Part shown: one piece after another, positions 8,297 through 42,664 of the stretch
Position numbering within the stretch: the stretch's first letter is position 1
Layout: each line of letters opens with the position of its first letter
From: Dehalococcoidales bacterium
Lineage (GTDB): Bacteria; Chloroflexota; Dehalococcoidia; Dehalococcoidales; Fen-1064
Assembly (NCBI GenBank): GCA_020342155.1
Contig: CP070842.1
Coordinates: forward strand, 555,930 to 619,929
Direction: 5' to 3'
Length of the DNA: 64,000 nt
Translations under genes and position numbers: made by a program
The notes under the pieces: model-generated
Seen by the model: the letters and a program-made list of their open reading frames with translations, nothing else
Database searches by the model: none
Told to the model about the DNA's origin: nothing

Positions 8297-8340
8297 TAGA
8301 TAAGCGCAAGGTGTCTTGGGCATAAAAGACGTAACGGCTC

Positions 8341-13970: not shown

Positions 13971-14010
13971 TAGAGGGAATAACCAGTGCTAAAGGGAAGA
14001 GAATGCCAAC

Positions 14011-16128: not shown

Positions 16129-17777
16129 CAATACTTAAAGAATACAAACGCATAACCGTTGCTGAGAACTGTCATGGTTGCTTCGCCTGTGAAGTGGCCT
16201 GCAAGCAGGAGCATAGCCTGCCGGTAGGTCCCCGATGGATAAGGGTATATCCCGATATGAGAGAAGTTGGCGGTCAGTGGCGACTCAGCTACTTTGTCAC
16301 CGAGTGCGGGCGTGCCGCACCTGCTCCGTGTCAGCTTGCCTGCCCCGCCGGACTGAATGCCTGGCACTACGTCAGTCTTGCTTCGCAGGGCAAATTCAAG
16401 GAAGCCCTTGAGGTGATAAGGAAGACAACGCCTTTTGCCGGAGTTCTGGGTCGTGTCTGTACCCGTCCCTGTGAACTGGATTGTGAGCGCGGGAAGGTCG
16501 ATGTACCGGTGGCGATTCGTGCTCTAAAGCGCTTCCTGGCTGACCACGAAATGCAATCAGGCAGAGAGAAAGCAACTCCCGTGAAGCAGACCAAGGACAG
16601 CCAAGTAGCTATCATCGGCTCTGGTCCGACCGGTTTGTCCTGCGCCTACGACCTCATCCGGCAGGGGTATCCGGTTACCGTGTTCGAGACTGACGAAAGG
16701 CCCGGCGGCCAATTACGCTACGGAATTCCAGAAAACAGGCTACCAAAACAAATAGTGGATGATGAGATTGGTTACATCGAGGAACTGGGAGTAGAGATAA
16801 AGACAAACACCCCAATTAAAGACTTGTCGGGAGTTTTAAGTCAGGAATATCAAGCCATCTTTCTGGCAGCTGGTGCTCACCTGAGCCAGAAAATGGAAAT
16901 CCCCGGAGAAGATACCGAAGGGGTAACGTATGCCCTCGATTTTCTCAAACGCTTGAATTCCGGGCAGAAGGTTACTCTTGGGGAAAAGGTAGCTGTTATT
17001 GGCGGCGGTAATACAGCGGTCGACGCCGCCAGAGTGGCACTGCATATGGGAGTAAAGGAAGTCTCAATCATCTATCGTCGCTCCCGAGCCGAAATGCCGG
17101 CGATGGCTGCGGAAGTAGAGGAGGCGGAGCGGGAAGGTGTAAAAGTGGACTTCCTGGCAGTTCCAACTAGAATATTGAGTAAAGGTAACCAACTAACAGG
17201 TATTGAATGCGTTCGAATGGAGTTAGGCGAGTACGATGCTAGCGGTCGCCGGTCTCCAGTGCCTGTCAGAGGCTCTCAGTTCAACGTAGACATCGATAAT
17301 CTGCTTGTCGCTGTTAGTGAGTCGGTAGACAAGGCAATGCTGCCTGAAGGCCTAAAATCGACTGAACGGGGGACTGTTCATGTAAATCCCCACACTTTAC
17401 AGACAAACGTGGTTGGTGTGTTTGCTGGCGGTGATGTCGTCACCGGCCCGAGGGATGTTGTTGGGGCGATTGCCGCAGGTAAAGAAGCCGCCGTCTCCAT
17501 TGACCGTTACCTCAGTGGAATGGACTTAAGGGAGGACAGATCAACCACAGCTAGAGTATTGCGTGAGGTAACAAAGGGAGACAGCATCAGGACAGTTACC
17601 GCCTTGATTGATGAAAAAAAGGCCATTGCTGAAGCCAAGCGCTGCCTGAATTGCGGCGTGTGCGCCGAAACACTCGAAAACGGGTTACAGACGGCTTGTG
17701 TCAATGCCTGCCCCAGTCATTGTATTTACTATCGGGATATCTGGGAAATCACACCCAAAACAGGCCCATATCTGTAG
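16092..17777 (+). CDS. GltD-like NAD(P)H-dependent FAD/Fe-S oxidoreductase with N- and C-terminal ferredoxin motifs
   Basis: CHGCFACEVACK, GltD-like CxxxC clusters, IIGSGPTGLSCA and VIGGGNTAVDAAR dinucleotide folds. GTG start overlaps the upstream gene by 37 nt, preceded by GAGGG 7 nt upstream; no other in-frame start codon before the first Cys motif. Confidence 0.8.
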   Translation: MQNIPGYGRGGITILKEYKRITVAENCHGCFACEVACKQEHSLPVGPRWIRVYPDMREVGGQWRLSYFVTECGRAAPAPCQLACPAGLNAWHYVSLASQGKFKEALEVIRKTTPFAGVLGRVCTRPCELDCERGKVDVPVAIRALKRFLADHEMQSGREKATPVKQTKDSQVAIIGSGPTGLSCAYDLIRQGYPVTVFETDERPGGQLRYGIPENRLPKQIVDDEIGYIEELGVEIKTNTPIKDLSGVLSQEYQAIFLAAGAHLSQKMEIPGEDTEGVTYALDFLKRLNSGQKVTLGEKVAVIGGGNTAVDAARVALHMGVKEVSIIYRRSRAEMPAMAAEVEEAEREGVKVDFLAVPTRILSKGNQLTGIECVRMELGEYDASGRRSPVPVRGSQFNVDIDNLLVAVSESVDKAMLPEGLKSTERGTVHVNPHTLQTNVVGVFAGGDVVTGPRDVVGAIAAGKEAAVSIDRYLSGMDLREDRSTTARVLREVTKGDSIRTVTALIDEKKAIAEAKRCLNCGVCAETLENGLQTACVNACPSHCIYYRDIWEITPKTGPYL

Positions 17778-23082: not shown

Positions 23083-23742
23083 TTACGGCAGGTCTTTCAG
23101 AGTGAGCCAGCCTTTTCTAAACCCGAATAATATTGCTTCAGTACGTGAAGCTACTTCGAGCTTATTGAAAATACTCCCCAGATGGGTCTGAACGACATTC
23201 AAACAAAGGACGAGGCGCTCTGCAATATCATTGTTACTTACACCTTTAGCAACTAATTTCAGCACCTCTACCTCGCGCTCGTTGAGCGGTTCGGTTCCCG
23301 GGACTCCGGCTGGGGTCGGAGATATCAGATGCTCTATAACTCGACGGGCGACTACGGGGTGAAGTACTGCCTCGCCGGCGTACACTGCCCGAATAGCATC
23401 AATCAGTTCATAGATTTTCAGACCCTTCAGCAAGTAGCCAGCTGCTCCCGCTTCTAAGAGGGCAAAAATGTACTGGTCGTAATCATAAGCGGTGAGTACC
23501 AGTACGGCTATGGATGGCTGCAGCTCCTTTATCCTTTTCGTGGCTTCTATGCCATTGAGCTTGGGCATATGGACATCCATTATGACCACATCTGGCTTCA
23601 GCTCCGTGGCTAGCCTGACAGCCTCTTCACCATCACCGGCTTCACCAACTACTTCCATATCTTCTTCACGCTGCACCGACGCACGAGTCAATTCCCGTAC
23701 CATAACGTGGTCTTCGGCCAGTAAAACCCTGATAGTATACAT
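23083..23742 (-). CDS. NarL/LuxR-family response regulator
   Basis: REC (LLAEDH...DVVIMDVHMPKLNG) plus C-terminal LuxR HTH (LNEREVEVLKLVAKGVSNNDIAERL). Confidence 0.9.
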   Translation of the reverse strand: MYTIRVLLAEDHVMVRELTRASVQREEDMEVVGEAGDGEEAVRLATELKPDVVIMDVHMPKLNGIEATKRIKELQPSIAVLVLTAYDYDQYIFALLEAGAAGYLLKGLKIYELIDAIRAVYAGEAVLHPVVARRVIEHLISPTPAGVPGTEPLNEREVEVLKLVAKGVSNNDIAERLVLCLNVVQTHLGSIFNKLEVASRTEAILFGFRKGWLTLKDLP

Positions 23743-23822: not shown

Positions 23823-24824
23823 CTACGTAGAAGCACCCTCCTCGATCAAGGCGTAGTGGGGTGGGAGCGCCCCGGTAGGACAAATAGCAAAGCACTCTTT
23901 ACAGTCAGCGCATTCTTTGCTGGCTATCTCTGGGAAAAACATGACCTCCCGTTCCGTTCCTCTACCAATAAAGCCTATGGCGTTTTTACCCTTCACCTCA
24001 GCACAGTAACGCACGCATAAACCACATAGAATACAGAAATTCGGTTCTACTTCGAACTTGGTTTCACTTGCCCCGCTTAGCTCGTAATTTCCTTTCGACT
24101 CCAACCCGGATATACCGTATCTCATTCCGTAATTCACCAGTGGTTGGACACCAGGGGCCCGAGCCCACATCAACTCCAACAGCATTTTACGGATTTTAAC
24201 TACCTGTTCCGATTCTGTCTTGACTATGAGTCCATCCTCAACAATGTAGACGCATGAAGTAACCAAACGCGATCTTTGCCCTCTGATTATCTCCACTATG
24301 CACAACCGACAGGCACCATAAGGTGACAGTTTCTCATGGTGACAGAGGGTAGGAATGTCAATTCCAATACTCTGTGCCGCCTCCAGAATGGTCGCCCCTT
24401 GTCGGACCTCAACCTCTCTGTCATCGATAACACAGGTAACGGTCTCCGGTCTTATCTCAACCTGGACCGGCCCCAGAGTCTGGCTAACCAGTTTCTCCAG
24501 ATCATTAAGGTCAAAGGGCTTGGGCAGATAATCAATAACCCCCTCTTTCATCGCCTCTACCGCTGTCTGGACAGAAGGGTAAGCAGTAATAATAATGCCA
24601 TTAAGCTGTGGCTGTTTCGCCCTGGCCTTCCTTAGTACCTCAAGCCCATCTGCTCCCGGCAACCTCAGGTCGAGGATGAGAAGTCCATAGTCCTGCTCCT
24701 CGATTGCTTTCAGCGCCTCGTCCCCTTGCGTGGCACTTTCCACCTGATAACCACCATCGGTTAGCCAGTCCTGGAGCGACTCTCTCATAATCGCTTCGTC
24801 TTCTACTATCAGAATCGGTTTCAT
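23823..24824 (-). CDS. REC domain fused to a NuoG/HydA-N-terminal-like [2Fe-2S] domain plus 2x[4Fe-4S] ferredoxin domain
   Basis: MKPILIVEDE...DLRLPGADG receiver; Cx10Cx2Cx15C (CHHEKLSPYGACRLC...C) 2Fe-2S pattern; CILCGLCVRYC and CADCKECFAICP motifs. GAGGAGG RBS. Confidence 0.8.
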   Translation of the reverse strand: MKPILIVEDEAIMRESLQDWLTDGGYQVESATQGDEALKAIEEQDYGLLILDLRLPGADGLEVLRKARAKQPQLNGIIITAYPSVQTAVEAMKEGVIDYLPKPFDLNDLEKLVSQTLGPVQVEIRPETVTCVIDDREVEVRQGATILEAAQSIGIDIPTLCHHEKLSPYGACRLCIVEIIRGQRSRLVTSCVYIVEDGLIVKTESEQVVKIRKMLLELMWARAPGVQPLVNYGMRYGISGLESKGNYELSGASETKFEVEPNFCILCGLCVRYCAEVKGKNAIGFIGRGTEREVMFFPEIASKECADCKECFAICPTGALPPHYALIEEGAST

Positions 24825-24853: not shown

Positions 24854-26764
24854 TTATCCACGCACGACTTCAGTGCCTTGTGCAACAAATTCTGGTACTT
24901 CCACACCGGAAAGTACAGTAATGGCGCCAAAACGAGCGGGACAAACCTCAAGACAAGTCCCGCACTTGGTGCATTTCTCCTGGTCTATTATATGGATTAG
25001 ATTTTTCCCACCGTCGATAGCCCCTACCGGGCAATTCCTCAGACAAATCATGCACGCCTGACACTTCTCCGGCTCTATCCAGTAATTTATCAACGCCTTA
25101 CAGACACCGGCCGGGCACTGCTTCTTCATAATATGAGCTTCATACTCATCCCGGAAGTACCTGAGCGTGCTCAGCACTGGATTGCAGGCCGTCTGTCCCA
25201 GTGCGCAAAGTGCCGAGTCTCCAAGCACCTCCGGTATTTCGTCCAGCAGCTTAAAGTCTTCTTCGCTGCTTTCCCCTTCGCAAATTCTATTCAGCACCTT
25301 AAGCATCTGGTATATCCCCTCACGGCAGGGCAAACACTTACCACAAGACTCCCCGGCGAGGAAGTTAATAAAATACCTGGCCACATCCACCATGCAGGTG
25401 TCCTCATCCATGACGATCATGCCGCCCGAGCCCATCATAGAACCTACTTTAGTGAGCTCATCGAAATCTACGGGGAGGTTAAGGAACTTATCCGGGATAA
25501 CTCCCCCCGAGGGGCCACCGGTCTGGACTGCCTTGAACTTCTTTCCATCAGGAATTCCACCGCCGATATCGTAAATCACCTCTCGGAGTGTCATTCCCAT
25601 AGGCACTTCAACCAGCCCGGTATTTTTCACCTTGCCAACCAGGGAGAAAATCTTTGTGCCCTTACTGCCTTCGGTCCCGATGTTGGTAAACCATTCAGCA
25701 CCGTTGTTGATAATGAGAGGTACATTGGCCCAGGTCTCCACATTATTCAGATTACTGGGTCTATCCCAGATACCGCTAACCGCAGTGCGGATATATTTCG
25801 GTCTGGGTTCACCAACCCTGCCCTCTATTGCTGTCATTAAAGCACTGGATTCACCCGATACAAAGGCACCAGCACCTCGGTGTATTTTAACGTCAAAATT
25901 AAAACCGGAGCCGAGAATATCCGAACCCAGAAGACCGAGTTCTCGTGCTTGCTCTAGAGCAATATTTAGATTCCCCACAGCTAAGGGATATTCCTGCCGC
26001 ACATAGATGAACCCCTCATGTGAGCCAATAGCGTAGGCACCGATAATCAGGCCTTCCAGTACGCTGTGAGGATTACCCTCAAGAAGGCTCCTGTCCATAT
26101 AGGCCCCAGGGTCGCCTTCGTCAGCATTTACGATAACGTATTTTCTCTCGCCTGGTGCGTCGCGGGTGGTCTCCCACTTTCTTCCAGCCGGGAAACCGCC
26201 ACCCCCTCTGCCCCTTAGATTAGACTCTTTTACCTCTTCCATAACCTCTTCAGGTGTCATCTCTAAAAGGGCTTTTGCCAGGGCGGCATAGCCACCAAGC
26301 GTAATGTAGTCCTCTATATTCGTAGGGTCGATGAGCCTGTTATTGCCAAAAATAACCCGGCTCTGGTGTTTATAGAAGGGTATCTCGCTCTCATGCGCGA
26401 TCTTTTGACCGTCATCATCCTCATACAGCAGACGGTCAACTACCTTCTTTTCGACTAATGTTGTAGAAACAATCTCAGGGACATCATCCGACCTTACTCT
26501 CAGATAGCATATTTCTTCAGGAAAGATGACTACCAAGGTACCCTTCTCACAGAAACCATGGCACCCCGTCCGGCGGATATCCACCTTCTCTTGAAGTCCG
26601 TTACTCTGGATATTGGCAACAAAGGCCTCGGCAACCTTTTCACTGCCGTAAGCATGACATCCCGTACCTGAACAAATGGTTACACATGGTTTGTTTGGGT
26701 CTCTCTTGGCTAGTATTTCCTGTCTTAAGTTCTCCAGGTCAGCGGCTGAGTTTAATCTGCCCAT
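24854..26764 (-). CDS. NuoF/HydB-like NAD(H)-binding FMN Fe-S subunit (N-terminal thioredoxin-like 2Fe-2S, C-terminal 2x[4Fe-4S])
   Basis: GRGGGGFPAGRKW (FMN), GAGAFVSGESSAL (NADH), ESCGKCLPCREG (N3 cluster), CQACMICLRNCP and CTKCGTCLEVCP. Confidence 0.9.
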   Translation of the reverse strand: MGRLNSAADLENLRQEILAKRDPNKPCVTICSGTGCHAYGSEKVAEAFVANIQSNGLQEKVDIRRTGCHGFCEKGTLVVIFPEEICYLRVRSDDVPEIVSTTLVEKKVVDRLLYEDDDGQKIAHESEIPFYKHQSRVIFGNNRLIDPTNIEDYITLGGYAALAKALLEMTPEEVMEEVKESNLRGRGGGGFPAGRKWETTRDAPGERKYVIVNADEGDPGAYMDRSLLEGNPHSVLEGLIIGAYAIGSHEGFIYVRQEYPLAVGNLNIALEQARELGLLGSDILGSGFNFDVKIHRGAGAFVSGESSALMTAIEGRVGEPRPKYIRTAVSGIWDRPSNLNNVETWANVPLIINNGAEWFTNIGTEGSKGTKIFSLVGKVKNTGLVEVPMGMTLREVIYDIGGGIPDGKKFKAVQTGGPSGGVIPDKFLNLPVDFDELTKVGSMMGSGGMIVMDEDTCMVDVARYFINFLAGESCGKCLPCREGIYQMLKVLNRICEGESSEEDFKLLDEIPEVLGDSALCALGQTACNPVLSTLRYFRDEYEAHIMKKQCPAGVCKALINYWIEPEKCQACMICLRNCPVGAIDGGKNLIHIIDQEKCTKCGTCLEVCPARFGAITVLSGVEVPEFVAQGTEVVRG

Positions 26765-26835: not shown

Positions 26836-27303
26836 CTATTCGCAAGTATCAGCAATCTCATCAAGTTCTTTCCTGGAAGGACTGCTATGATATTCCTCAT
26901 CGACTACCATCACCGGTCCCAGGGCACAGCAGCCAAGACAGTTTACTGTTTCCAGACTGAAGCGCATGTCATCCGAGGTCTCACCCGGTTTAATCTCTAA
27001 TTTCTCTGTTACTCTATCCAGGAGGCGAGGTGCACCACGCACCTGGCAGGCAGTCCCTAAACAGACCGATACCGAGTGTCGTCCTCTTGGTGTCAGACTG
27101 AAGGCTTTATAGAAAGTAGCTATATGATAGATTTGGCTCAAGGGAATTCCGAGCCTCTGGCTGGCCTGCATAAGGGCATCCCTGGGCAACCAGCGGTTTT
27201 CGTGCTGAATGTCGAGAAGCACCTGAATCAGAGAAGACTTGTCACCCTTATATTTGTCTATGATTTCATCGGTTTGAGCAACATCCTGGACCATCTTATT
27301 CAT
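26836..27303 (-). CDS. NuoE/HydC-like [2Fe-2S] subunit
   Basis: CLGTACQVRG...CLGCCALGPV pattern; 155 aa. Confidence 0.9.
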   Translation of the reverse strand: MNKMVQDVAQTDEIIDKYKGDKSSLIQVLLDIQHENRWLPRDALMQASQRLGIPLSQIYHIATFYKAFSLTPRGRHSVSVCLGTACQVRGAPRLLDRVTEKLEIKPGETSDDMRFSLETVNCLGCCALGPVMVVDEEYHSSPSRKELDEIADTCE

Positions 27304-27309
27304 ACCTCC

Positions 27310-28371
27310 TTAGTTTTCACCCCAGTAAGACCACCACCAACTAAGCTCTTTTTTATGTGAAGCCTCTTGTCGGGCGGCCAGCTCGACTGCTCTTTTTGCT
27401 AGCTTCTGCTGGAGGGCGTCGTCCATCATTTGTCCGAATTCACAGGTCTCGCACTGGTAGATACGGGAGCAGAGGCGGTAGGACACGTCATTCTTAAGAG
27501 CATAGCGACACAACCTCTGACTGCCGGGTAACGCCAGTAGTTTTTCCATGGCTGCATCAAGTTCAGAGGAGTCACCGCTAGCCAACTTGTCCTGCATCTC
27601 CTGGTCAAACTCACATGTCATGCAGTCGTAGTTGTTAGTGCAGACGCGATAAGACACCATCCCCATGCTCATCCAGACGCATTGTTTAGGTTTTTCTTCC
27701 CCTGGAGCCAATGCTTCAGTCTCAGGTTCGGCCAGCGTCCTTTTTATCTTCTGAATCCAGACCCTGTTCTCGATATTAGCCGGAGCAACTTCCAGGATAG
27801 CCTGAAATACCCTTAATGCCTCTATGTATCTGCCAGCTTCGAAGAGAGTCTTACCCTGCCTGAGGTGGCCTGGAACCTCCTCAGGAATAACAGCGATAAC
27901 CTCCTCGACCCGAACCTCCTCGACAACAACCTCCTCAACCTTGACCTCTTCTACCTTAACTGGCTCGTCTATAATCTCCTTAGTACCTGCCCGCGGTGTT
28001 ATTTCAATCTGTACCGGCCCGAGAGTCTCCCTGATTAGCTTCTCCATTTCATTAAGGTCAAAAGGCTTGGGCATATAATCAACAGCCCCTATTTTCATCG
28101 CCTCTACGGCTGTCTCAACTGAAGGATAGGCAGTAATGATGATTCCCTTGAGTTGGGGCCTTCTCTCTTTAGCTTCCCGCAATACCTCAAGCCCGTCTTT
28201 CCCCGGCAGCCTCAGGTCAAGAACGACAACACCGAAGTCATGTTCCTCGATAGTTTTCAGTGCTTCACTCCCCTCCTCTGCAGTTTCTACCTGATAGCCC
28301 CCATCCTTGAGCCAGTCTTTTAAAGACTCTCTCATAATTGCTTCGTCTTCTACTATCAATATCGGTTTCAT
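27310..28371 (-). CDS. REC domain + (K/V/R)VEEV repeat linker + TPR-like helix pair + 2x Cx12Cx5Cx2C module
   Basis: The receiver is nearly identical to that of 23823..24824. Cys modules at aa 238-260 and 295-317 (numbered from ORF start 28392). Start set at MKPILIVEDE (ATG 28369-28371, GGGGG 7 nt upstream). Confidence 0.75.
   Translation of the reverse strand: MKPILIVEDEAIMRESLKDWLKDGGYQVETAEEGSEALKTIEEHDFGVVVLDLRLPGKDGLEVLREAKERRPQLKGIIITAYPSVETAVEAMKIGAVDYMPKPFDLNEMEKLIRETLGPVQIEITPRAGTKEIIDEPVKVEEVKVEEVVVEEVRVEEVIAVIPEEVPGHLRQGKTLFEAGRYIEALRVFQAILEVAPANIENRVWIQKIKRTLAEPETEALAPGEEKPKQCVWMSMGMVSYRVCTNNYDCMTCEFDQEMQDKLASGDSSELDAAMEKLLALPGSQRLCRYALKNDVSYRLCSRIYQCETCEFGQMMDDALQQKLAKRAVELAARQEASHKKELSWWWSYWGEN
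27898..27957 (-). repeat. 4 x 15-nt in-frame tandem repeat encoding KVEEV-KVEEV-VVEEV-RVEEV
   Basis: Plus strand reads aacctcctcgac-type units with 15-nt periodicity. Confidence 0.8.
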
Positions 28372-28449
28372 CTTCTCGCCCCCTTCACTCATTTTTTAAC
28401 TCCTTAAGACAACTAGCTCGTCTATCTGATAACTCCCACACTATTATCA

Positions 28450-28466
28450 TGCAATTTTCTCGCCAA
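28450..28466 (-). promoter_or_regulatory. Sigma-54 (-24/-12) promoter: TTGGCGAGAAAATTGCA
   Basis: The reverse complement of 28450..28466 matches TGGCAC-N5-TTGCW at GG-N10-GC with TGGC and TTGCA intact (2 mismatches, AC to GA). It lies ~80 nt upstream of the REC/Cys-rich gene, with sigma-54 and a sigma-54 activator encoded immediately upstream. Confidence 0.65.
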
Positions 28467-28471
28467 AGAAT

Positions 28472-28500
28472 AAGGCTGCCCTGATATTTAGGGCAGCCTT
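28472..28500 (-). terminator. Perfect 11-bp inverted repeat (AAGGCTGCCCT-N7-AGGGCAGCCTT): terminator of the ntrC-like gene, or an activator site
   Basis: GC-rich hairpin 42 nt after the stop of 28542..29903, followed on the minus strand by AUUCUUU. It lies only 5 nt upstream of the -24 element. Confidence 0.5.
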
Positions 28501-28541: not shown

Positions 28542-29903
28542 TCAGCGAGTGCCTATTTTTTTTACATCCAATCCATACGCCTTAATTTTATTATAGAGAG
28601 TCATTCTCGCGATTCCTAAGACCGCGGCAGCTTCACTGTAGTTGCCGTTGGTCTCAGTGAGTACATGCAGAATGTGGTTCTTCTCAACCTCATCAAGACT
28701 TTTGCCTGCCAGTGTTACCCTTACTAACTGCGAGTTTTCCTGAACCAGATCTCCCACCTCGATACAGGCATTTTTAGATAAAATGACCGCTCGCTCAATT
28801 GCGTTTTCTAGCTCTCTAACATTGCCAGGCCACTCATATTTTAGGAGAAAATCGGTAGCCTTTGGAGAATATTCGGTGATTTCCTTCTGGTTCTCCGTGG
28901 CAAACTTCTCCAGGAAGTACTGGGCTAAGAGAGGTATATCTTCTTTTCTCTCTCTTAATGGAGGCAGGTCAATCGAAACTACGTTCAAACGATAATAAAG
29001 GTCTTCACGAAATGTTTCATCGGTCACGGCCCTCTTAATATCTTTATTTGTCGCTGAAACAACCCTGACATCAGTCTTAACCAGTTCGTTACCACCAACC
29101 CTGGTGAATTCCTTCTCTTCCAGTACTCTCAACAGGTGACCCTGAATATTAGCACTCATGTCACCAATCTCATCCAGAAAGAGAGTGCCTTTATTAGCGA
29201 CCTCGAACTTACCCTTTTTTTGCGCATAAGCTCCGGTGAAGGACCCCTTTTCATGGCCAAACAGTTCACTCTCTAGAAGACTCTCAGGCAAGGCAACGCA
29301 ATTAACGGCGACAAATGGCTTACTCCGACGATGACTCTGGGAGTGAATAGAGCGGGCCACAAGTTCCTTGCCGGTGCCACTCTCACCTGTAATCAATACA
29401 GTAGCATTGCTCCTGGCTACAACCTTAATTATCTCAACTACCTGTTGCATCTTGGGACTTTTAGCGGTGATATTTTCAAATTCGTAACGCTCCTTTAGCT
29501 TCTTGTGCAAGGAAATGTTCTCCTCAACCAATCCCTGATGCTCAACCAATTTCTCAAGTAGAATCGCCAACCTTTCTGGGCAGAAAGGCTTCTCGATATA
29601 GTCATAGGCACCTTCTCTCATAGCAGAAATGGCGGTTGGGATGCTCGCGAAAGCGGTAATGATTATCACGTTAACAACCGGGTTCATCTCCTTTGCTTTC
29701 TTCATAAACTCTATCCCATCCATACCCGGCATCACGAGATCACTAATGATAATCCCTATCTGCTCCTCTTCCAGTATCTCCAGGGCTTGAGAGCCGCTCT
29801 CCGCAGTAAACACATGATAACCGGCATCATTTAGCCAGTCACAAAGCGATTCGCGAACAATAGCTTCATCGTCAACAACGAGGATATTAGCTTCTCTACT
29901 CAT
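28542..29903 (-). CDS. NtrC-family sigma-54-dependent response regulator (REC + AAA+ + Fis-type HTH)
   Basis: GESGTGKE Walker A, GSFTGA (GAFTGA-type sigma-54 contact loop), C-terminal HTH ...AAAVLGIARMTLYNKIK. Confidence 0.9.
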   Translation of the reverse strand: MSREANILVVDDEAIVRESLCDWLNDAGYHVFTAESGSQALEILEEEQIGIIISDLVMPGMDGIEFMKKAKEMNPVVNVIIITAFASIPTAISAMREGAYDYIEKPFCPERLAILLEKLVEHQGLVEENISLHKKLKERYEFENITAKSPKMQQVVEIIKVVARSNATVLITGESGTGKELVARSIHSQSHRRSKPFVAVNCVALPESLLESELFGHEKGSFTGAYAQKKGKFEVANKGTLFLDEIGDMSANIQGHLLRVLEEKEFTRVGGNELVKTDVRVVSATNKDIKRAVTDETFREDLYYRLNVVSIDLPPLRERKEDIPLLAQYFLEKFATENQKEITEYSPKATDFLLKYEWPGNVRELENAIERAVILSKNACIEVGDLVQENSQLVRVTLAGKSLDEVEKNHILHVLTETNGNYSEAAAVLGIARMTLYNKIKAYGLDVKKIGTR

Positions 29904-31836
29904 GGTAAGCCTCCAAGCGGACAGTAAAGGTAGTTCCCTCCCCCTCTTTACTATCTACCTCAATTCTTCCCTGATGTCGTTGGATAATTCCATAGGCCAC
30001 AGCTAGTCCTAAACCTACCCCTTTACCCTTCTCTTTTGTGGTAAAGAAGGGAGTAAAGAGCTTGTGCAGGTTTTCTTGAGAGATACCTGACCCTGTATCC
30101 TGAACCTCTATCTTAATCTGGTCGTCATTAACTACTGAGGTACGGAGGACTAACTCACCCCCCTTTGACATTGCTTGGATGGCATTCATGATAAGGTTTG
30201 TAAGAACCTGATGAAGCTGGTCAAAATCAGCCATGACTTTAGGCAAGTCAGGGCTATATTCTTTTCTCACCTCAACATTCTGCAGACCGGCCTGGTGACC
30301 AATGATGTTAAAAGCTCGCTCGATAACCTGGTTTATGTCTACCAGCCTGAGGGTTGGTGTTGACTGGCGAGCAAAATCCAAGAGATTACGAATTAACCTG
30401 GAACTACGGGTAAGCTCTGAGTCCATTTTTGTCAGGTAGTCCAGCGATTTTTCCTTACTGATGGTATTATTAGATATGTTTTTCTCCAGCAACTTGGTAT
30501 AGACAAGGACACCGGCCAGAGGATTATTGACCTCGTGAGCAATAGAGGCTGCCATCTGGCCTAAGGAGGTTAGCTTCTCGGCCTGGATAAGGTCTTCCTG
30601 AGTAGCCTCCAGTTTCTTGAGTAAATAAGGCCAACACATATTAATCTCTGCCAATTCCTGGCCGATGGCAACAGCCAACTCTCTACAGGAAGCGTAACCA
30701 CAAGCTCCACAATCCATCCGGTAACTGGGACTAACCCTGCCAATTTGCTCAAGGAGACCTCTGACTTCTTCTTCGCTGGGAGTTGGTAGGTAGATACTGC
30801 GCCCAGTAAATTTACGGTTGAGGTCAATCGTAGCGTAACGCTCGATGTCCTTCTCAGTCTGGGTGGGGTCTACATTACTCCGAGCGTATCTAGCAATAAG
30901 CTCCTTTCGACTAAAACCGCTTAGTTCATTATCAATAAACGGTCCATCAATACACCCGTGACAAAAATACAGATTAGCAAATCTAGCAGTGATGTCACCT
31001 TGAGCAAATTCCCCAAGAATCTTGACAACATATTCCCTACCGTGAACACTCATGACATCATTCTTCATTATGTCATCAGTTAATCCCATAACCTTAAGCA
31101 GGCCGCCTGATATGGCAAATAGCCGACCAAGCTTGGATATAGGGCCAGCAAACTGCTCGTCCTGCTCACTGCTCGGGACAATTCCTTTATCAGCAAACAT
31201 TTCCTTTAATTCCGTAAAGGTTAGCACAGCATCCACCATACCATCAGCATTCTTATCGGCGATTTCTGCTTTCTTAGCAACACACGGACCAATGTAGACC
31301 ACCTTAGCCTGCGTGTTGTGATATTGCTTGATTATTCTACCCATGGCAATTGTAGGTGAAACAATGGGTGCCAGATTACTGAGTAGTGAGGGATGGTACT
31401 TCTCGATGTAGGTTACTACCGCCGGGCAGTTAGATGAGATTATAGGCCCGTCTTTAACTTCGTCTAGTAGTTGGATGTATTCCCCACTGATTAGCTCGGC
31501 ACCGAAGGCTGCCTCCATCACATTGCTGAATCCCAGCTTCTTAAGAGAGGTTACAAATTGCCCAGGCTTACAATTGAGCAAGGCAGCTGGGAAGGAAGAG
31601 GAAACTACAGCTACCACATCAGGGTGGTTAGCCAATAGCTGCCGAACTAATTCGACATCGCTCTCCGCTTGCTTTGCCCCGGTAACACAGACACGTATAC
31701 AGTTGCCACAATCAATACAACGTTCCTTTATTACCTCAGCCAACCCTTCTCTTATCTTGATTGCCTTAGTCGGACAGTGACGTACACAGGCGTAGCACCC
31801 CTGACACTTCTCTCGGTCGGTATAGACAACGCTCAT
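29896..31836 (-). CDS. Histidine kinase with N-terminal 2x[4Fe-4S] + [FeFe]-hydrogenase H-domain-like sensor + Cx2Cx4Cx16C motif
   Basis: CQGCYACVRHCP and CIDCGNCIRVC; H-cluster-type motifs SSNCPAV, IGPCVAKKAE, FCHGCIDGP; CGACGYASC-x16-C; then SIAHEVNNPL H-box and an HATPase_c domain. Confidence 0.8.
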   Translation of the reverse strand: MSVVYTDREKCQGCYACVRHCPTKAIKIREGLAEVIKERCIDCGNCIRVCVTGAKQAESDVELVRQLLANHPDVVAVVSSSFPAALLNCKPGQFVTSLKKLGFSNVMEAAFGAELISGEYIQLLDEVKDGPIISSNCPAVVTYIEKYHPSLLSNLAPIVSPTIAMGRIIKQYHNTQAKVVYIGPCVAKKAEIADKNADGMVDAVLTFTELKEMFADKGIVPSSEQDEQFAGPISKLGRLFAISGGLLKVMGLTDDIMKNDVMSVHGREYVVKILGEFAQGDITARFANLYFCHGCIDGPFIDNELSGFSRKELIARYARSNVDPTQTEKDIERYATIDLNRKFTGRSIYLPTPSEEEVRGLLEQIGRVSPSYRMDCGACGYASCRELAVAIGQELAEINMCWPYLLKKLEATQEDLIQAEKLTSLGQMAASIAHEVNNPLAGVLVYTKLLEKNISNNTISKEKSLDYLTKMDSELTRSSRLIRNLLDFARQSTPTLRLVDINQVIERAFNIIGHQAGLQNVEVRKEYSPDLPKVMADFDQLHQVLTNLIMNAIQAMSKGGELVLRTSVVNDDQIKIEVQDTGSGISQENLHKLFTPFFTTKEKGKGVGLGLAVAYGIIQRHQGRIEVDSKEGEGTTFTVRLEAYHE

Positions 31837-32951
31837 TAGTCCCCCTCACTTTCATACCGAACATACTTACTCTTGCACCGAGAAGCAGGCAATCTCAGCT
31901 CTTTCCTCAGGTCGGCCACCGAGCGACGAGAGATGGTCACACCGAATTTTTCCTGCAGCTCAGTCTTTATCGCGTCATCTGAGGAAAGTCCTTCCTCGGT
32001 TTCAAGAAGTTGTTTGATTAGTTCTTTCTTAAACTTCTTCGATCTGGGGAAAAAGTGCTTAAGGGGAACCTCTGTACCCAAAGGTGTCTCTAGGCTTTTC
32101 CTGTTGATGGCACGACTAACAGAGCTGGGAGCAAGCCCAATTTTCTCAGCCAGTTCTTTCTGACTGAAGGGTAATAGAGATTTAGGATCACCACACTCCA
32201 GATATAACGCTTGCTTATCAACAATACCCTGCAGTATTTGACTTACCGTGTCCTTGCAGCTATTAACTGATTCTAGTCTCTTGAATAGCTGCTTAGCTTC
32301 ACTGACCTCAGTCTCAGTGAAAACCCCTCTTACCCTCAACTCCTCAAAGCTTCCGTAATCAATCCGATATCTTCCCCGGGCAAAGGGGGCGGATAAGTAT
32401 CCAATAGTAAAGCTATCCCCCCGTCTCTCTACCGAGGCAATTTTAGAATAGCGAATTTGCTCTGAACTGAAAGCGGAGGGATGATAGAACTCACTTAGAA
32501 TAGAGAAGTCATTGACAAGGTCATTTATCTCTCGGACTTCTGAAATACTCAGACCACATTCCTCAGCAATCTCTTCCAGGACCATCCCTGACTCAGGAAA
32601 CAAGAAGTAACGCTTGAATTTCTCCAGTCCCAACTTCTCTACTAGACGAACGATTCGCGCCTTGTTTTCTAGAAGGGATTCCACGTCAAGAGAGCCTTTG
32701 TCGGCTGTGGTTTCTTCTCTAAGCTGAAAATATTGGGATGAAATATCGGTCTTGGGAACTCTCTGGTAATGGATGAGTTTCTCTTCCTGATAAAGCCTCA
32801 CAAAGAGAGGAGTTTTTTCTAGCTCGATGACAAGCTGAATGAAGGTTTGCTCAGGCATTTCCAGCAACTTGGCCTGTTCTATGAGGAAGACTTGTTTTAA
32901 TTCCTGCCTGATTTGTTGGGATTGTCTTTGCTCTGTTATCATACTAGGCAT
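31836..32951 (-). CDS. rpoN: Short (371 aa) sigma-54 (RpoN) family sigma factor
   Basis: Gln-rich region I (EQRQSQQIRQELKQ...LLEMPEQTF..ELEKTPLF), HTH (LAPSSVSRAINRKSLETPLGTEVPLKHFF), and an RpoN-box-like GVTISRRSVADLRKELRLP. Overlaps the kinase start by 1 nt. Confidence 0.8.
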   Translation of the reverse strand: MPSMITEQRQSQQIRQELKQVFLIEQAKLLEMPEQTFIQLVIELEKTPLFVRLYQEEKLIHYQRVPKTDISSQYFQLREETTADKGSLDVESLLENKARIVRLVEKLGLEKFKRYFLFPESGMVLEEIAEECGLSISEVREINDLVNDFSILSEFYHPSAFSSEQIRYSKIASVERRGDSFTIGYLSAPFARGRYRIDYGSFEELRVRGVFTETEVSEAKQLFKRLESVNSCKDTVSQILQGIVDKQALYLECGDPKSLLPFSQKELAEKIGLAPSSVSRAINRKSLETPLGTEVPLKHFFPRSKKFKKELIKQLLETEEGLSSDDAIKTELQEKFGVTISRRSVADLRKELRLPASRCKSKYVRYESEGD

Positions 32952-32960: not shown

Positions 32961-32989
32961 ATTTTACTACTCCTGTGATGTATTGTCAA
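32961..32989 (-). promoter_or_regulatory. Sigma-70 promoter TTGACA-N17-TAAAAT, only 9 nt upstream of the rpoN-like ATG (near-leaderless)
   Basis: The reverse complement gives TTGACA (32984..32989), a 17-nt spacer and TAAAAT (32961..32966). ATG at 32949..32951, no SD sequence. Confidence 0.45.
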
Positions 32990-34747: not shown

Positions 34748-34777
34748 GAATCAGGTCTAATAAAGGAGGTGAAATCA

Positions 34778-34969
34778 ATGGAGACTGTACTGACAATCCT
34801 GATGTTCCTGGGAATTTACGTCGTCTTTCCTCTACTCGTAGCCACTATCGTGTGCGGTATAGCCCTGTTGGCGAGACGTCGTGCTAGGAGTGTGGAGATA
34901 GCCAAACGTGCCAAGGCTCCGACTGCAGCCAAGAAGGTAGGGCTCGCTCATCATCCTGCTAAGACTTAG
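34778..34969 (+). CDS. Small (63 aa) single-TM protein with basic tail, tandem paralog A1
   Basis: AAGGAGG-N8-ATG. The first 31 codons differ from A2 by 8 synonymous and 1 nonsynonymous change. Confidence 0.7.
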   Translation: METVLTILMFLGIYVVFPLLVATIVCGIALLARRRARSVEIAKRAKAPTAAKKVGLAHHPAKT

Positions 34970-34999
34970 TACGAGATTATCAATAAGGAGATGAAATCA

Positions 35000-35182
35000 A
35001 TGGAGGCTGTACTGACAATCCTGATGTTCCTGGGAATCTACGTCGTCTTTCCCCTACTCGTGGCCACCATCGTATGTGGTATAGCTCTGCTGGGGAAGCG
35101 GCGTGCTACGAGGGCCGCAAGGGCTAAAGCCCCAGCAGCCAGAGAGGCCGAAGAACTCACCCATGAGCCTGCTAAGGCGTAG
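35000..35182 (+). CDS. Small (60 aa) single-TM protein with basic tail, tandem paralog A2
   Basis: AAGGAG-N9-ATG; METVLTILMFLGIYVVFPLLVATIVCGIALL core shared with A1. Confidence 0.7.
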   Translation: MEAVLTILMFLGIYVVFPLLVATIVCGIALLGKRRATRAARAKAPAAREAEELTHEPAKA

Positions 35183-35366: not shown

Positions 35367-36221
35367 ATGAGTGATAAAGCTATCCTTTTCAACACCACCA
35401 GATGCATTGCGTGTCGCGGTTGCCAGGTGGCCTGCAAGCAGTGGAATGAGACAGACGAGGTGATTCCCACTGAACAGAACAGCGTACGATCAGTAAACCG
35501 TGGCAGTTATGAAAATCCCCCGGACCTCTCACCAAAGACTTGGATGACGATTAAATTCATTGAGAAACCGCAGGGCGATTCCATAGAGTGGTTTTTCAAT
35601 CGTCGTAGCTGTATGCATTGTACTGAGGCTGCCTGTGTCGAGGTGTGCCCCTCTGGGGCTCTTTATCACAACGAAGATGGGTTTGTCACCTATGATAAAG
35701 ATAAATGTACAGGCTGTGGTTATTGTGAGCAATACTGCCCGTTTGATGTTCCTCGATTAGACACAAATATTGTCACAGGCGTGGGTAAAATGGACAAGTG
35801 TACTCTCTGCACGACCCCAAGCCTCAATCGTCTCTCGGCAGGTGAAGAACCTGCGTGTGTCAATACCTGTCCCACTCACGCTCTAGTCTTCGGTGATAGG
35901 GACGAGCTTATCTCCGAAGCTAAAACACTGGTCACCGGTCTGCAGACAACCGGCTCTAGGGTCTATCCCAAGGCAACGCTTTACGGAGAACAGGAACTCG
36001 GTGGCCTCCACGTTCTTTATGTTCTGACAGACTCGCCTGGAGTCTACGGCTTGCCAGAGAATCCTCAGTTCCCTATCGCGGCCACACTCCAGAGAGATGT
36101 CTTCCGTCCCCTTACTAAGGTGGTGTGGCTCATGGTCGCTGGTGGCCTGGCACTGAACGTCTTGATTGCCTGGTTCAGGCAGAGGCAACTTAGTGAGGAG
36201 AACTCTCATGGAAATGATTGA
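35367..36221 (+). CDS. fdnH: FdnH/HybA-like 4x[4Fe-4S] electron-transfer subunit with C-terminal TM anchor
   Basis: CIACRGCQVACKQWN, CMHCTEAACVEVCP, CTGCGYCEQYCP, CTLC...CVNTCP; C-terminal hydrophobic helix. Confidence 0.85.
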   Translation: MSDKAILFNTTRCIACRGCQVACKQWNETDEVIPTEQNSVRSVNRGSYENPPDLSPKTWMTIKFIEKPQGDSIEWFFNRRSCMHCTEAACVEVCPSGALYHNEDGFVTYDKDKCTGCGYCEQYCPFDVPRLDTNIVTGVGKMDKCTLCTTPSLNRLSAGEEPACVNTCPTHALVFGDRDELISEAKTLVTGLQTTGSRVYPKATLYGEQELGGLHVLYVLTDSPGVYGLPENPQFPIAATLQRDVFRPLTKVVWLMVAGGLALNVLIAWFRQRQLSEENSHGND

Positions 36222-36861
36222 ACGCTATACACGAGCAGCGAGATGGTTTCACTGGCTTATTGCCATCGTATTTTTTGAGATGGCACTGTCAGGGCTACTC
36301 ATCTTTCTCCCCTGGGTTCCTTCAGGCACGATAGGCATGTGGACTCGACTTATCCACCGTATTGGCGCAGTGTTTCTCGTTGGCGCTCCGGCAATATTCA
36401 TGCTTTTTGCCTGGCAACGTTCATGGGATTTCATTAAGGAAGCATTCACCTGGGGTAAAGAAGACCTCGAATGGCTGCGAGCCGCACCAGGCTACTATTT
36501 TGGCGGTGACCCGAGGATGATGCCACCCCAGGGTTATATTAACACCGGGATGAAGCTATACCGAATATCTATCATCCTCGGTGGTGGCGTATTTCTTATT
36601 ACGGGATTTATCATGACATTTCTCAGGGGAATTGTACCTCCGGCGGTCTTCCAGTGGTGCCTCGTCCTGCACGATGTCACCTTTATCGTGGCTATCGGTA
36701 TGTTCCTTTTGCACTTTCAACTCGGCGTTTTTCACCCTAGAATGGATGAGTCTCTCTTGTCTATGTTCGATGGCAAGGTCTCAGGTGTCTACGCCAAGTC
36801 CCACCATGGCAAGTGGTATGACGGAGTTAATAATAGAGATGACGATAACTCCTCCGAATAA
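36208..36861 (+). CDS. fdnI: FdnI-like di-heme cytochrome b membrane subunit
   Basis: RYTRAARWFHWLIAIVFF..LSGLLIF, 4 TM with conserved His. Start set at ATG 36208 (GAGGAG upstream), overlapping fdnH-like by 14 nt. Confidence 0.7.
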   Translation: MEMIERYTRAARWFHWLIAIVFFEMALSGLLIFLPWVPSGTIGMWTRLIHRIGAVFLVGAPAIFMLFAWQRSWDFIKEAFTWGKEDLEWLRAAPGYYFGGDPRMMPPQGYINTGMKLYRISIILGGGVFLITGFIMTFLRGIVPPAVFQWCLVLHDVTFIVAIGMFLLHFQLGVFHPRMDESLLSMFDGKVSGVYAKSHHGKWYDGVNNRDDDNSSE

Positions 36862-40796: not shown

Positions 40797-41459
40797 TCAG
40801 GATATGTCCTCTAGGCTGAACCACCCCTCTTTTAACCCTCGTAGAATGGCCTCAGTGCGTGAGCCGACCCCTAATTTATCGAAGATACGGGCGAGGTGAC
40901 CCTGTACAGTTCGGACGCTGAGATAGAGCTTATCAGCAATATCGCCGTTGCTCAGACCTTTGGCTGCCAGCATGAGTACTTCAAGCTCTCTCTCAGTAAG
41001 GGATGCAGGAGCAACCTGACCAGCCCCCTGCTTGGATGGCATGAAACGCCGCAGGACCTTGCTCGCAATTGCCGGATGAAGCACTGACTCGCCATGATAA
41101 ACCGAGCGAATTGCCTCTACCAGTTCAGAGCCACGTACATTCTTCAACAGGTAACCAGCCGCTCCCGCCTCGAGGAGGCTGAAGACATATCTGTCATTGT
41201 CATATACTGTCAGGACCAGCACGGCAGTGGAAGGAACAGCCTCCTTCAGTCGCCTGGTGGCTTCGATGCCATTAAGCTTTGGCATAGCAATATCCATAAT
41301 GGCGACATCGGGTTTGAGTCTGATGACTTGCTCAACAGCCTCTTCACCATCGCCTGCCTCGGCTACCACCTCCATGTCGCTTTCGGCTTCAAGGACCCGG
41401 CGGGTACCCTCACGGACTATAGCATGGTCATCAGCCAGCAATATTCTGATCTTCTCCAT
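40797..41459 (-). CDS. NarL/LuxR-family response regulator
   Basis: MEKIRILLADDH...GEAGDGEEAV...MPKLNG; LuxR HTH LTERELEVLMLAAKGLSNGDIA. Confidence 0.9.
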   Translation of the reverse strand: MEKIRILLADDHAIVREGTRRVLEAESDMEVVAEAGDGEEAVEQVIRLKPDVAIMDIAMPKLNGIEATRRLKEAVPSTAVLVLTVYDNDRYVFSLLEAGAAGYLLKNVRGSELVEAIRSVYHGESVLHPAIASKVLRRFMPSKQGAGQVAPASLTERELEVLMLAAKGLSNGDIADKLYLSVRTVQGHLARIFDKLGVGSRTEAILRGLKEGWFSLEDIS

Positions 41460-41485: not shown

Positions 41486-42664
41486 CTAGTTGGAACCTGC
41501 CTCAGTGATAGCCCCTTCTTTATTACCTGGGCCCATTGGTAGAAGCCGATTAGCCAGCCAGATGACAAGCATGGCATCGGCGACGAGTCCGGCTGATACG
41601 GCAAACTCCATCCAGTAAGGGAAATAGGTGAAATCTGGCCGTATACCAAGAGCCAGCATACTTACGTTGAAACGGTTGAATATCAGTCCTACTACAACCA
41701 GCGTCGCCGTCCAGAACAGCCATGTCCTGCTTTGTCTCACACTGGGCATGGAGAATAGGACGATTGGCAGGATAGCACCAATAACCATTTCTCCCCACCA
41801 GAGCAGGTTCTCCGGATAGGCTGTAAAGATTAGCGTCAGGTCTCCCCTGGCCAGCAGGTCTACTATTTTCAGTAAAAGATAAACACTCAGTATATAGGCG
41901 GTCATTTTGCCCAGGCCGCTGAAGATATCAAGACTTAAACGGTGGCCGAAGACCCGGCTGCTCAGCGTTGACTCGAACATCACCATCGCCGGTCCCACTG
42001 CAATGGCCGAATTAAGAAAAAGTATTGGTAGTATCGGTGTGTACCAAAGGGTGTGAAGGGTCTCTGGCATCATTAGCAGCATTGACCCCAAGGATGACTG
42101 GTGCAGAGTGGAAAGGACAATGCCGGCAATCACCAAGGGTATCTGTATTGCCCGGATAATGCGCATAGGAATTTGCCACTTGAATCGTTTTATTATGGGC
42201 AGGTCGGATTTACTTAAGGCCTCAAAAACCACCGGGCTGAACTCTAGGGCAAGTACAATGGTGTAGGTCATGACACACAATGACACTTCAAACATTGGGG
42301 AGTGGATGTTCCAGTTAAAAAGGAAGCGCCAGATGTACCAGGGCTGTCCCAGGTCCACCAGCAGGGCAAGTATCACCAGAGTATAGCCCAAGAACGCAGT
42401 CAGGATTGCCGGTCTCGCCACGGCATGGTATTTTTCGCGTCTGAAGATATACACAATCCCCGCCAGGGTGAACCCGCCAGCTGCCAGGGCGACGCCACAA
42501 TACAGGTCGAAGCTTATCCAGAGCCCCCAGGCACGACCATCACTGAGGTTGGTCGTTGCCCCCAGTCCATTGATATAGCGGAGTATCATGGTTATCAGCC
42601 CAATCAGAACCACAGTTGTCAGGATAAGTGTGCCAACCGGGATTGAACGTTTGTTTATCTTCAT
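41486..42664 (-). CDS. nrfD: NrfD/PsrC-family integral membrane quinone-interacting subunit
   Basis: 392 aa, ~10 TM. Start overlaps the stop of the Fe-S subunit gene (ATGA). Confidence 0.8.
   Translation of the reverse strand: MKINKRSIPVGTLILTTVVLIGLITMILRYINGLGATTNLSDGRAWGLWISFDLYCGVALAAGGFTLAGIVYIFRREKYHAVARPAILTAFLGYTLVILALLVDLGQPWYIWRFLFNWNIHSPMFEVSLCVMTYTIVLALEFSPVVFEALSKSDLPIIKRFKWQIPMRIIRAIQIPLVIAGIVLSTLHQSSLGSMLLMMPETLHTLWYTPILPILFLNSAIAVGPAMVMFESTLSSRVFGHRLSLDIFSGLGKMTAYILSVYLLLKIVDLLARGDLTLIFTAYPENLLWWGEMVIGAILPIVLFSMPSVRQSRTWLFWTATLVVVGLIFNRFNVSMLALGIRPDFTYFPYWMEFAVSAGLVADAMLVIWLANRLLPMGPGNKEGAITEAGSN

Follow-up and report, generated by a model that had tools for sequence, protein, structure and literature searches.

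A histidine kinase with an [FeFe]-hydrogenase-like input domain and its conserved sigma54 cassette in Dehalococcoidia: a probable Group C-type sensory system

Group C [FeFe]-hydrogenases are putative H2 sensors, and the characterised examples, TmHydS and TamHydS, have no readable output. A gene at positions 29896-31836 in a 64,000-nucleotide stretch (the window) of a Dehalococcoidales bacterium (assembly GCA_020342155.1, contig CP070842.1, positions 555,930 to 619,929 of the forward strand) encodes a hydrogenase-like H-domain as the input of a complete histidine kinase. We consider it probable that this protein joins a sensory hydrogenase of the Group C type to a kinase and that its signal goes to an activator of the NtrC type and a sigma54-like factor of its own. 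We infer that H2 is the signal because of the behaviour of TmHydS and TamHydS and the linkage of relatives of the kinase to hydABC and hydEFG genes. The sensor kinase itself is a fresh member of a known, very common and already classified type and confirms more than it surprises; the novelty of protein type implied in the original prediction, which was made from the sequence alone, was overstated, because such proteins are known and very common in metagenomes. The gene and its parts are listed below with nucleotide (nt) positions of the window and amino acid (aa) positions of the protein.

29896..31836, (-) strand: sensor histidine kinase, 646 aa, ATG start (open reading frame list, Pfam, Foldseek)
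31675..31827, (-) strand: F-domain, aa 4-54, two Cx2Cx2Cx3C ferredoxin motifs (Pfam Fer4/Fer4_10)
30940..31620, (-) strand: H-domain, aa 73-299, Fe_hyd_lg_C, PF02906 (Pfam, E = 6.9e-50)
31417..31437, (-) strand: counterpart of the first H-cluster signature (P1), SSNCPAV, aa 134-140, with Asn136 at the position of the proton-relay Cys and Cys137 as the cubane ligand (alignment)
31264..31293, (-) strand: counterpart of the second signature (P2), IGPCVAKKAE, aa 182-191, with Cys185, Lys188 and Glu191 kept and Gly183 for the Met of MPC (alignment)
30940..30966, (-) strand: counterpart of the third signature (P3), FCHGCIDGP, aa 291-299, with Cys292 and Cys295 in Cx2C spacing (profile alignment)
30634..30711, (-) strand: Cx2Cx4Cx16C motif, Cys 376, 379, 384 and 401, presumed [4Fe-4S] site (PF04060 'FeS', aa 374-402)
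30472..30633, (-) strand: unbroken helix predicted for aa 402-455 (AlphaFold model, DSSP)
29908..30564, (-) strand: kinase core, HisKA aa 425-491 and HATPase_c aa 537-643 (Pfam)

By Pfam, the domains follow one another as a 2x[4Fe-4S] F-domain, the H-domain, a C-terminal four-Cys cluster, HisKA and HATPase_c. Fer4 was matched twice at aa 5-54, and the Cys residues of the two motifs (11, 14, 17 and 21; 40, 43, 46 and 50) are conserved in homologues. The H-domain scored 170 bits with PF02906 (cut-off 22.1) over model positions 10-245 of 245, and a family profile matched PDB hydrogenases with E = 5.7e-33. The AlphaFold model has a mean predicted local distance difference test score (pLDDT) of 76.7, with 80-92 across most of the H-domain, and when it was searched with Foldseek the best 17 PDB matches were all [FeFe]-hydrogenases, with about 370-445 aligned columns and TMt up to 0.68 (for example, 8zqd with E = 1.4e-20 and 1hfe with TMt 0.67 over 370 columns); no structure of a sensory-type hydrogenase was among the PDB matches listed. 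Thus, the reading frame with two ferredoxin motifs and an H-domain is present as the original prediction had claimed, and the direct fusion to HisKA/HATPase_c that it described is also real, as a complete kinase core with its box residues lies in the same polypeptide.

Could such an H-domain hold an H-cluster? In phmmer comparisons with the PDB, 'iSSNCPavv' paired with 'fTSCCPswi' of HydA1 (8a6t) and also with 'fTSaCPgw' of the relay mutant C178A of D. desulfuricans (8bj7), and because SSNCP aligns with TSaCP of this mutant, Asn136 stands exactly on the position of the relay Cys, which bears out the proposed replacement of the first Cys of TSCCP by Asn. Likewise, 'iGPCVAKKAE' paired with 'vMPCIGKKFE', so that the SSNCPAV and IGPCVAKKAE segments, previously read as counterparts of TSCCP and MPCxxKxxE, do align with solved hydrogenases at the proposed positions. 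The pairwise comparisons ended at about aa 250, short of P3, and a 12-sequence family profile was used for this signature, in which 'NLyFCH-GCIDG' paired with 'EvMaCPgGCxxG' in 8a6t, 7qv7 and 8bj7. The claim that FCHGCIDGP is the third-signature counterpart was therefore right for the Cys ligands but needs one correction, because a one-residue deletion gives Cx2C instead of the canonical Cx3C and the Glu and Met of ExM are replaced by Asn288 and Tyr290. Altogether, the H-cluster ligands of 8a6t, 7qv7 and 8bj7 have their aligned counterparts in C137, C185, C292 and C295, which show no variation among 121 close homologues and a conservation of at least 98% among 124 distant representatives (27-47% identity, taken from profile matches of the sensor module). 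The expected retention of all four cluster-ligating Cys, for which alignment with the H-cluster ligands had been named as the check, was confirmed for each of them by phmmer or the family profile.

The residues around these ligands point to a sensory rather than a catalytic protein. Position 136 is Asn in 97, Thr in 16, Ser in 4 and His in 4 of the 121 close homologues and Cys in none, and the relay position in the 124 distant representatives is mostly occupied by Ala (41), Pro (20), Ser (15), Thr (15), Cys (11), Asn (8) or His (5). The latter counts mirror the published figures for sensory-type sequences, in which the relay Cys was found in only 17% and Ala in about 43% (2023 TmHydS mutagenesis paper, PMC10055695). 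C185 and E191 were kept in 121/121 and K188 in 120/121 close homologues, and in its pocket the close family has preserved Lys188, Glu191, Ser160-Pro161 and Phe240. Gly replaces Met353 in 117/124 distant representatives, and their P3 spacing is Cx2C in 71 and Cx3C in 51. In the loci that we fetched for comparison (described below), all motif-matched sensors fused to a kinase (44/44) or to a sigma54 AAA+ domain (27/27) had Cx2C, and all 17 neighbouring HydA proteins had Cx3C. In the loci outside the Dehalococcoidia-type set, every motif-matched sensor of either fusion has GPC (or GSC) along with Cx2C, and the catalytic HydA has MPC and ExMxCPGGC. The hallmarks of Group A, namely the relay Cys in TSCCP and Met at 353 and 497, are replaced here by Asn136, Gly183 and Tyr290. 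The phmmer alignment also has a four-residue gap in the sensor opposite 'tiveeta' of 8a6t, a segment that we take to be the Glu279/Glu282 region of CpI. A catalytic hydrogenase was considered and dropped, because the relay Cys and the Met residues are absent.

This combination is that of a published class. As reported by Land et al. in 2020 (PMC8163306), an N-terminal 2x[4Fe-4S] domain and a Cx2Cx4Cx16C motif towards the C-terminus are common to the M2e and M2f subclasses, in which neither C299 nor the remainder of the proton pathway is conserved, and TmHydS has Gly for Met353. The sensor kinase has the two [4Fe-4S] motifs, the H-domain, the Cx2Cx4Cx16C motif, a relay and proton pathway that are not conserved, and a fused signalling domain; the frequent, not obligatory, position of such proteins next to a Group A hydrogenase was seen in 0/46 loci of the Dehalococcoidia type. 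Compared from published descriptions, TmHydS of Thermotoga maritima (Group C, M2f) likewise has an N-terminal 2x[4Fe-4S] domain, a relay residue other than Cys and Gly for Met353, but its relay residue is Ala131 instead of Asn136, the Met497 position is Ser267 instead of Tyr290, its output is a PAS domain instead of a directly attached, complete HisKA/HATPase_c, and, unlike the sensor kinase, it has adjacent hydrogenase genes. Even with Ala131 at the relay, TmHydS holds an H-cluster and shows slow turnover (PMC10055695). TamHydS of Thermoanaerobacter mathranii (Group D, M2e), for which a bound H-cluster and slow reversible catalysis were reported (PMC8163306), has the same three-part FeS/H-domain architecture without a relay Cys, but it carries no fused signalling domain, a kinase-like ATPase being encoded separately, and Met353 is Ser in it and Gly in the sensor kinase. 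The earlier conclusion of sensing rather than catalysis is the one that the literature on this class had already reached (PMC8163306, PMC10055695, PMC5037454). HydDB lists an [FeFe] class C1 as 'histidine kinase-linked (putative)' (PMC5037454), and because one C3 reference of HydDB is reported to have a His-kinase domain while the best C1 reference in a study of Hydrogenedentota lacks HATPase_c (PMC11406978), the sensor kinase may belong to either C1 or C3.

The family is broad. Among the matches listed, at least 120 database proteins with 65-93% identity had the same architecture, and those close homologues with a source name all came from metagenome-assembled genomes of Dehalococcoidia or Chloroflexota. 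A profile search of 1.84 billion representatives with the sensor module returned at least 1365 clusters (50% identity) at E <= 1e-30, and nearly all of the 150 listed matches, evident fragments aside, covered the full 410-aa module. A Pfam scan of the outputs took in 74 of the distant representatives; Fe_hyd_lg_C and PF04060 were present in 74/74, and the outputs included HATPase_c/HisKA (30/28), PAS (17), sigma54 AAA+ (7) and GGDEF (3). Because it is fused to differing outputs, the sensor module is an input domain that has been widely reused.

How could the H-domain reach the kinase? The Cx2Cx4Cx16C motif lies at aa 376-401 (nt 30634..30711) exactly as originally described; it scored 34.3 bits with PF04060 (cut-off 23) and is invariant in the distant representatives. 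Its identification with the extra cluster of putative sensory hydrogenases agrees with the description of M2e and M2f (PMC8163306). A relationship with corrinoid Fe-S protein was also considered for this motif and rejected: although the motif and its Pfam family are common to both, what it forms in this protein is the accessory cluster already known from sensory hydrogenases. The predicted helix of aa 402-455 begins right after the last ligand, Cys401, and carries the phospho-acceptor His434, with no PAS domain in between. From this arrangement, the C-terminal cluster may be coupled directly to the kinase; the confidence of the model is low there (pLDDT 41-57), as is expected when a helix of a dimer is modelled as a monomer. 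The kinase core is well preserved: the H-box AHEVNNPL with His434 (nt 30535-30537, invariant in close homologues) and the N, G1, F and G2 boxes (N551, DTGSGI, FTPFFTTK and GVGLGL) are invariant or nearly so, the core is 35% identical to the cytoplasmic domain of ZraS (9jfj, E = 1.9e-41), and the best NCBIfam kinase models are AtoS and ZraS.

To which partners would such a kinase signal? The genes and sites on either side of it offer an answer.

32961..32989, (-) strand: sigma70-type promoter TTGACA-17-TAAAAT, 5' of the sigma54-like gene (consensus match only)
31836..32951, (-) strand: divergent sigma54-like protein, 371 aa (Pfam Sigma54_DBD, E = 1e-22)
28542..29903, (-) strand: NtrC-type response regulator, 453 aa, with REC, sigma54 AAA+ (GSFTGA) and HTH_8 (Pfam Sigma54_activat, E = 4e-74)
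28472..28500, (-) strand: terminator-like hairpin 3' of the NtrC-type gene, 11 pairs, 7 of them G-C
28451..28465, (-) strand: sigma54-type -24/-12 promoter, TGGCGAGAAAATTGC (motif and cross-locus conservation)

The kinase gene is tightly packed between two regulatory genes. The TAA stop of the sigma54-like gene and the ATG of the kinase gene overlap by 1 base, and the start of the NtrC-type gene and the stop of the kinase gene overlap by 8 nt. The putative sigma70-type promoter fits the consensus at 11/12 positions and is the best match in a 12.4-kb scan. In the sigma54-like protein, the RpoN match is confined to the C-terminal DNA-binding half (TIGR02395, 88 bits vs a cut-off of 277; PDB 5ui5, E = 9e-11), and no activator-interacting or core-binding model matched the N-terminal 210 aa. 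The parts of an NtrC/sigma54 circuit are together here, with an activator of REC, AAA+ and HTH domains and a -24/-12 promoter.

These arrangements were compared across 78 sensor loci, which were found in one scan of GTDB species genomes and annotated by phmmer with the window proteins as queries. The set of the Dehalococcoidia-type cassette comprises 46 loci, and the counts use loci with enough sequence. The sigma54-like gene lies directly upstream of the sensor in 32/36 and the NtrC-type regulator downstream in 40/40, a receiver-TPR-Cys gene (see below) is present in 27/35, a NuoF-like gene follows downstream in 7/24, and HydA occurs within 10 kb in 0/46. TGGC-N7-TTGC (consensus TTGGCAAGAAAATTGCA) was found within 450 nt 3' of the NtrC open reading frame in 35/41 loci (for example, at 13366-13380 of locus L004), against a background of 116 matches in 2.29 Mb with both strands counted. 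A generic sigma54 consensus with 2 mismatches was not enriched in a scan of the window (63 matches vs 52 expected), and what makes the promoter site credible is the conservation of its position across loci and nothing else. A hairpin of differing sequence is found at the same place as the terminator-like hairpin in L004. Dehalococcoidia thus have a conserved cassette of a sigma54-like factor, the sensor kinase, an NtrC-type regulator and a near-invariant sigma54 promoter.

What stands behind this promoter? In the window it is followed by four genes, of which the last three resemble an electron-transfer module.

27310..28392, (-) strand: receiver-TPR-Cys protein, 360 aa, first gene behind the sigma54 promoter (Pfam Response_reg, TPR_2)
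26836..27303, (-) strand: NuoE/HoxE/HydC-like [2Fe-2S] subunit (Pfam 2Fe-2S_thioredx, E = 5.5e-49; NCBIfam NuoE/HoxE)
24854..26764, (-) strand: NuoF/HydB-type flavoprotein, 636 aa (NCBIfam nuoF_fam, 465 bits; Pfam)
23823..24824, (-) strand: N-terminal receiver fused to a HoxU-like, HydA-N-terminal-like FeS protein ([2Fe-2S] and 2x[4Fe-4S]) with no H-domain (Pfam Response_reg, Fer2_4, Fer4)

The receiver-TPR-Cys protein contains two CX12CX5CX2C motifs (Cys 238, 251, 257 and 260; Cys 295, 308, 314 and 317), the eight Cys of which are invariant in 103 sequences. Response_reg and TPR_2 were the only Pfam families matched in it, none of them in the C-terminal part, and both Cys motifs were modelled by AlphaFold with pLDDT < 50. 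Some of its homologues (P0421, P0484, P0507) have a further 2x[4Fe-4S] ferredoxin domain. The flavoprotein has a [2Fe-2S]-like region at the N-terminus (ferredoxin match at aa 36-113) and a 2x[4Fe-4S] region at the C-terminus, and the receiver-HoxU-like protein matched HoxU of NCBIfam with 134 bits and FeFe_hydrog_A6 over residues 1-206. The two receivers of the operon are 76% identical to each other, 47-48% identical to the REC domain of the NtrC-type regulator and 25-28% identical to those of four regulators of LuxR type in the window. In three other loci (L004, where the trio lies at 13429-17281, L013 and L036) the NuoE-like subunit likewise carries a receiver, fusions of the receiver-HoxU-like kind make up at least 75 clusters in the protein database, and in the NCBI annotation of a 93%-identical ortholog in another copy of the cassette an internal Met was taken as the start, giving 242 aa instead of 333 and dropping the receiver. 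The operon is like HydABC and HoxEFU in its NuoE-like subunit, its flavoprotein with extra FeS domains and its [2Fe-2S] and 2x[4Fe-4S] subunit; it differs from them in having no H-domain or [NiFe] module and in the receiver on the HoxU-like subunit.

The composition of this operon allows two further proposals. The kinase may also phosphorylate the receivers on the HydBC/HoxEFU-type diaphorase subunits and so gate them after translation in dependence on H2 or redox state, within a self-contained sigma54 regulon in which the sensor is the sole H-domain within 10 kb; we regard this extension as unlikely. Alternatively, the F- and H-domains of the kinase might dock on the NuoE-like, HydB-type and receiver-HoxU-like proteins and serve as the H-cluster subunit of a split HydABC-like complex, a working and possibly bifurcating hydrogenase whose turnover the kinase would report. 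The downstream trio corresponds to HydC, HydB and the N-terminal part of HydA; what it lacks of HydA is precisely what the kinase contains, and the flavoprotein has at both ends the additional FeS domains that are typical of HydB. However, the proton pathway is missing, which makes fast catalysis unlikely; moreover, the diaphorase genes follow the cassette in only 7/24 loci and stand behind a terminator and a separate promoter, and the receiver domains suggest transient phosphotransfer over a fixed complex. We therefore judge such a split enzyme to be quite improbable.

The case for H2 as the signal draws on more distant relatives. The other set comprises 33 loci with 36-48% identity from Myxococcota, Ignavibacteria, Bacillota, Riflebacteria and others, except that five of the loci are from Dehalococcoidia with 52-60% identity. 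HydA adjoins the sensor in 17/33 of these loci, the sensor kinase gene is immediately preceded by hydC-hydB-hydA in 13/23, and a receiver-kinase hybrid follows the sensor in 18/26. Halanaerobium has the sensor module in fusion with a sigma54 AAA+ domain, upstream of hydCBA. Maturase genes were found as well: in locus L047 (48% identity) a gene for a HydF-like GTPase and hydE (TIGR03956, 363 bits, above the cut-off) lie directly upstream of the sensor-NtrC pair, and in L070 hydG, a HydF-like gene and hydE lie downstream of the sensor. The relatives that are tied in these ways to hydrogen metabolism have 38-48% identity. As a separate observation, 10 of the 17 neighbouring HydA proteins have TSCSP (or TSCSA) for TSCCP, with Ser at the second, cubane-ligating Cys and with MPC and ExMxCPGGC kept (L057, L063, L065, L069, L070, L072, L073, L077, L078 and L079; in L070 at 6845-8689). 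A further possible signal is some other small molecule that binds to the H-cluster or the FeS clusters, for example CO, O2 or NO. H-clusters bind CO and react with O2, and the reactivity of TamHydS with CO and O2 is unusual (PMC8163306), but the locus has no genes of CO or O2 metabolism and the relatives are tied to hydABC and maturases; this reading seems to us very improbable indeed.

Several observations weigh against H2 sensing by a Group C-type sensor in this organism. None of the 46 Dehalococcoidia-type loci has HydA within 10 kb of the sensor, and hydE, hydF, hydG and a catalytic hydrogenase are all absent from the 64-kb window; phmmer searches with HydE, HydG and the HydF-like protein of L047 and L070 returned 0 matches in the window and matches only in L047, L068 and L070 among the fetched loci. 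The pocket is further from the canonical one than that of TmHydS, with SSS for the APS of the wider family (the equivalents of Ala230-Pro231-Ser232 of CpI, the Pro231 equivalent being Ser), Cx2C in P3 and Asn or Thr at the relay, and the P3 loop at aa 295-306 is poorly modelled by AlphaFold (pLDDT < 50). In addition, the sensory role of the whole group was still called 'putative' in a 2022 review (PMC8924675), its kinase-fused members have no characterised example, and C1 sequences of Hydrogenedentota, which are fused to HATPase_c, have hardly any of P1-P3, and H2 sensing was doubted for them (PMC11406978).

Because of the lack of nearby hydrogenase and maturase genes and the extra changes in the pocket, a redox sensor without the di-iron subcluster is a serious rival. 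Such a protein would hold the cubane and three accessory clusters and report the ferredoxin/NAD(H) poise, perhaps through contact with the diaphorase. The regulated operon, an NAD(H)/ferredoxin-type electron-transfer module with no hydrogenase, is in keeping with this, as are Ser at the Pro231 equivalent, Cx2C and Asn at the relay. Nar1/NARF-like proteins are hydrogenase-like, hold only the cubane and have lost the residues that line the [2Fe] site. Set against this general description, rather than against a Nar1 reference sequence, the sensor keeps Lys188, Glu191, Pro161 and Phe240, which speaks against such a protein, and has Ser at the Pro231 equivalent. Several points count against the redox-sensor rival: these four residues, which contact the [2Fe] site in canonical enzymes, are nearly invariant in the subfamily, Cx2C and Gly183 are common to relatives inside hydABC and hydEFG clusters, and the whole H-domain is kept at 65-93% identity across at least 120 listed homologues, which would be needless for plain redox sensing. 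On balance, we hold the cubane-only sensor to be rather unlikely and prefer the Group C-type sensory hydrogenase.

For the preferred sensory hydrogenase, the following course of signalling can be proposed. The H-domain would bind an H-cluster that reacts with H2 and turns over slowly, with Asn136 replacing the relay Cys, and the resulting reduction may be passed to the adjacent C-terminal [4Fe-4S] cluster at Cys 376, 379, 384 and 401. In the structural model the helix from Cys401 runs straight into the dimerisation helix with His434, and because of this continuity the cluster could control autophosphorylation through its redox state, with no need for a PAS domain. Genomic context argues strongly that the NtrC-type activator, encoded by a gene that overlaps that of the kinase, would receive the phosphoryl group and that, together with the co-encoded sigma54-like factor, it would fire the conserved sigma54 promoter at 28465-28451. 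This promoter would drive the receiver-TPR-Cys protein and, in this genome, also the NuoE/HydB/HoxU-like NAD(H)-ferredoxin diaphorase; the two operon receivers, being like the NtrC REC domain, might perhaps be fed by the same kinase. A similar logic is known from Cupriavidus necator, in which the slow [NiFe] group 2b hydrogenase HoxBC senses H2 and controls the kinase HoxJ and the sigma54-dependent, NtrC-type activator HoxA. However, the metal site and the fold are unrelated, and HoxBC and HoxJ are separate proteins instead of one polypeptide.

Some other features of the window were recorded. A molybdopterin oxidoreductase gene (43469-46483, (-) strand) is split by an in-frame TGA at 45918-45920 in the context 'HCARL-U-HSSTVASLAESFGRGAMTNH', and because this is the selenocysteine context of formate dehydrogenases, it is probably a selenocysteine-containing FdhA-like gene; behind it lie the genes of a 4Fe-4S subunit at 42661-43467 and of an NrfD-like membrane subunit at 41486-42664. 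Two tandem small open reading frames of 66 and 63 aa (34769-34969 and 34991-35182, both (+) strand) encode near-identical N-terminal membrane segments (MKSMEtVLTILMFLGIYVVFPLLVATIVCGIALL) and lie upstream of genes for a 4Fe-4S protein and a cytochrome b (35367-36861) without an adjoining catalytic partner gene. The four paralogous LuxR-type regulators (23083-23742 and 40797-41459 on the (-) strand, 49687-50364 and 52689-53411 on the (+) strand) have receivers that are 59-67% identical to one another, and each adjoins a histidine kinase with TPR, GAF or PAS input.

In the literature that we searched, nothing was found that joins Dehalococcoidia to hydG/Hym, to hydrogenases of Group C or to sensory ones, no paper dealt with this sensor system of Dehalococcoidia, and neither the conserved sigma54 cassette nor a receiver-tagged diaphorase was found described. 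For the question of whether Group C [FeFe]-hydrogenases sense H2, the fusion to a kinase with an adjacent cognate regulator offers a simple read-out through H2-dependent autophosphorylation and phosphotransfer, and the conserved promoter offers a defined transcriptional one. Dehalococcoidia are abundant in the subsurface and in marine sediments, and the cassette would place an NAD(H)/ferredoxin module of these bacteria under the control of H2 or redox poise even without a nearby hydrogenase.

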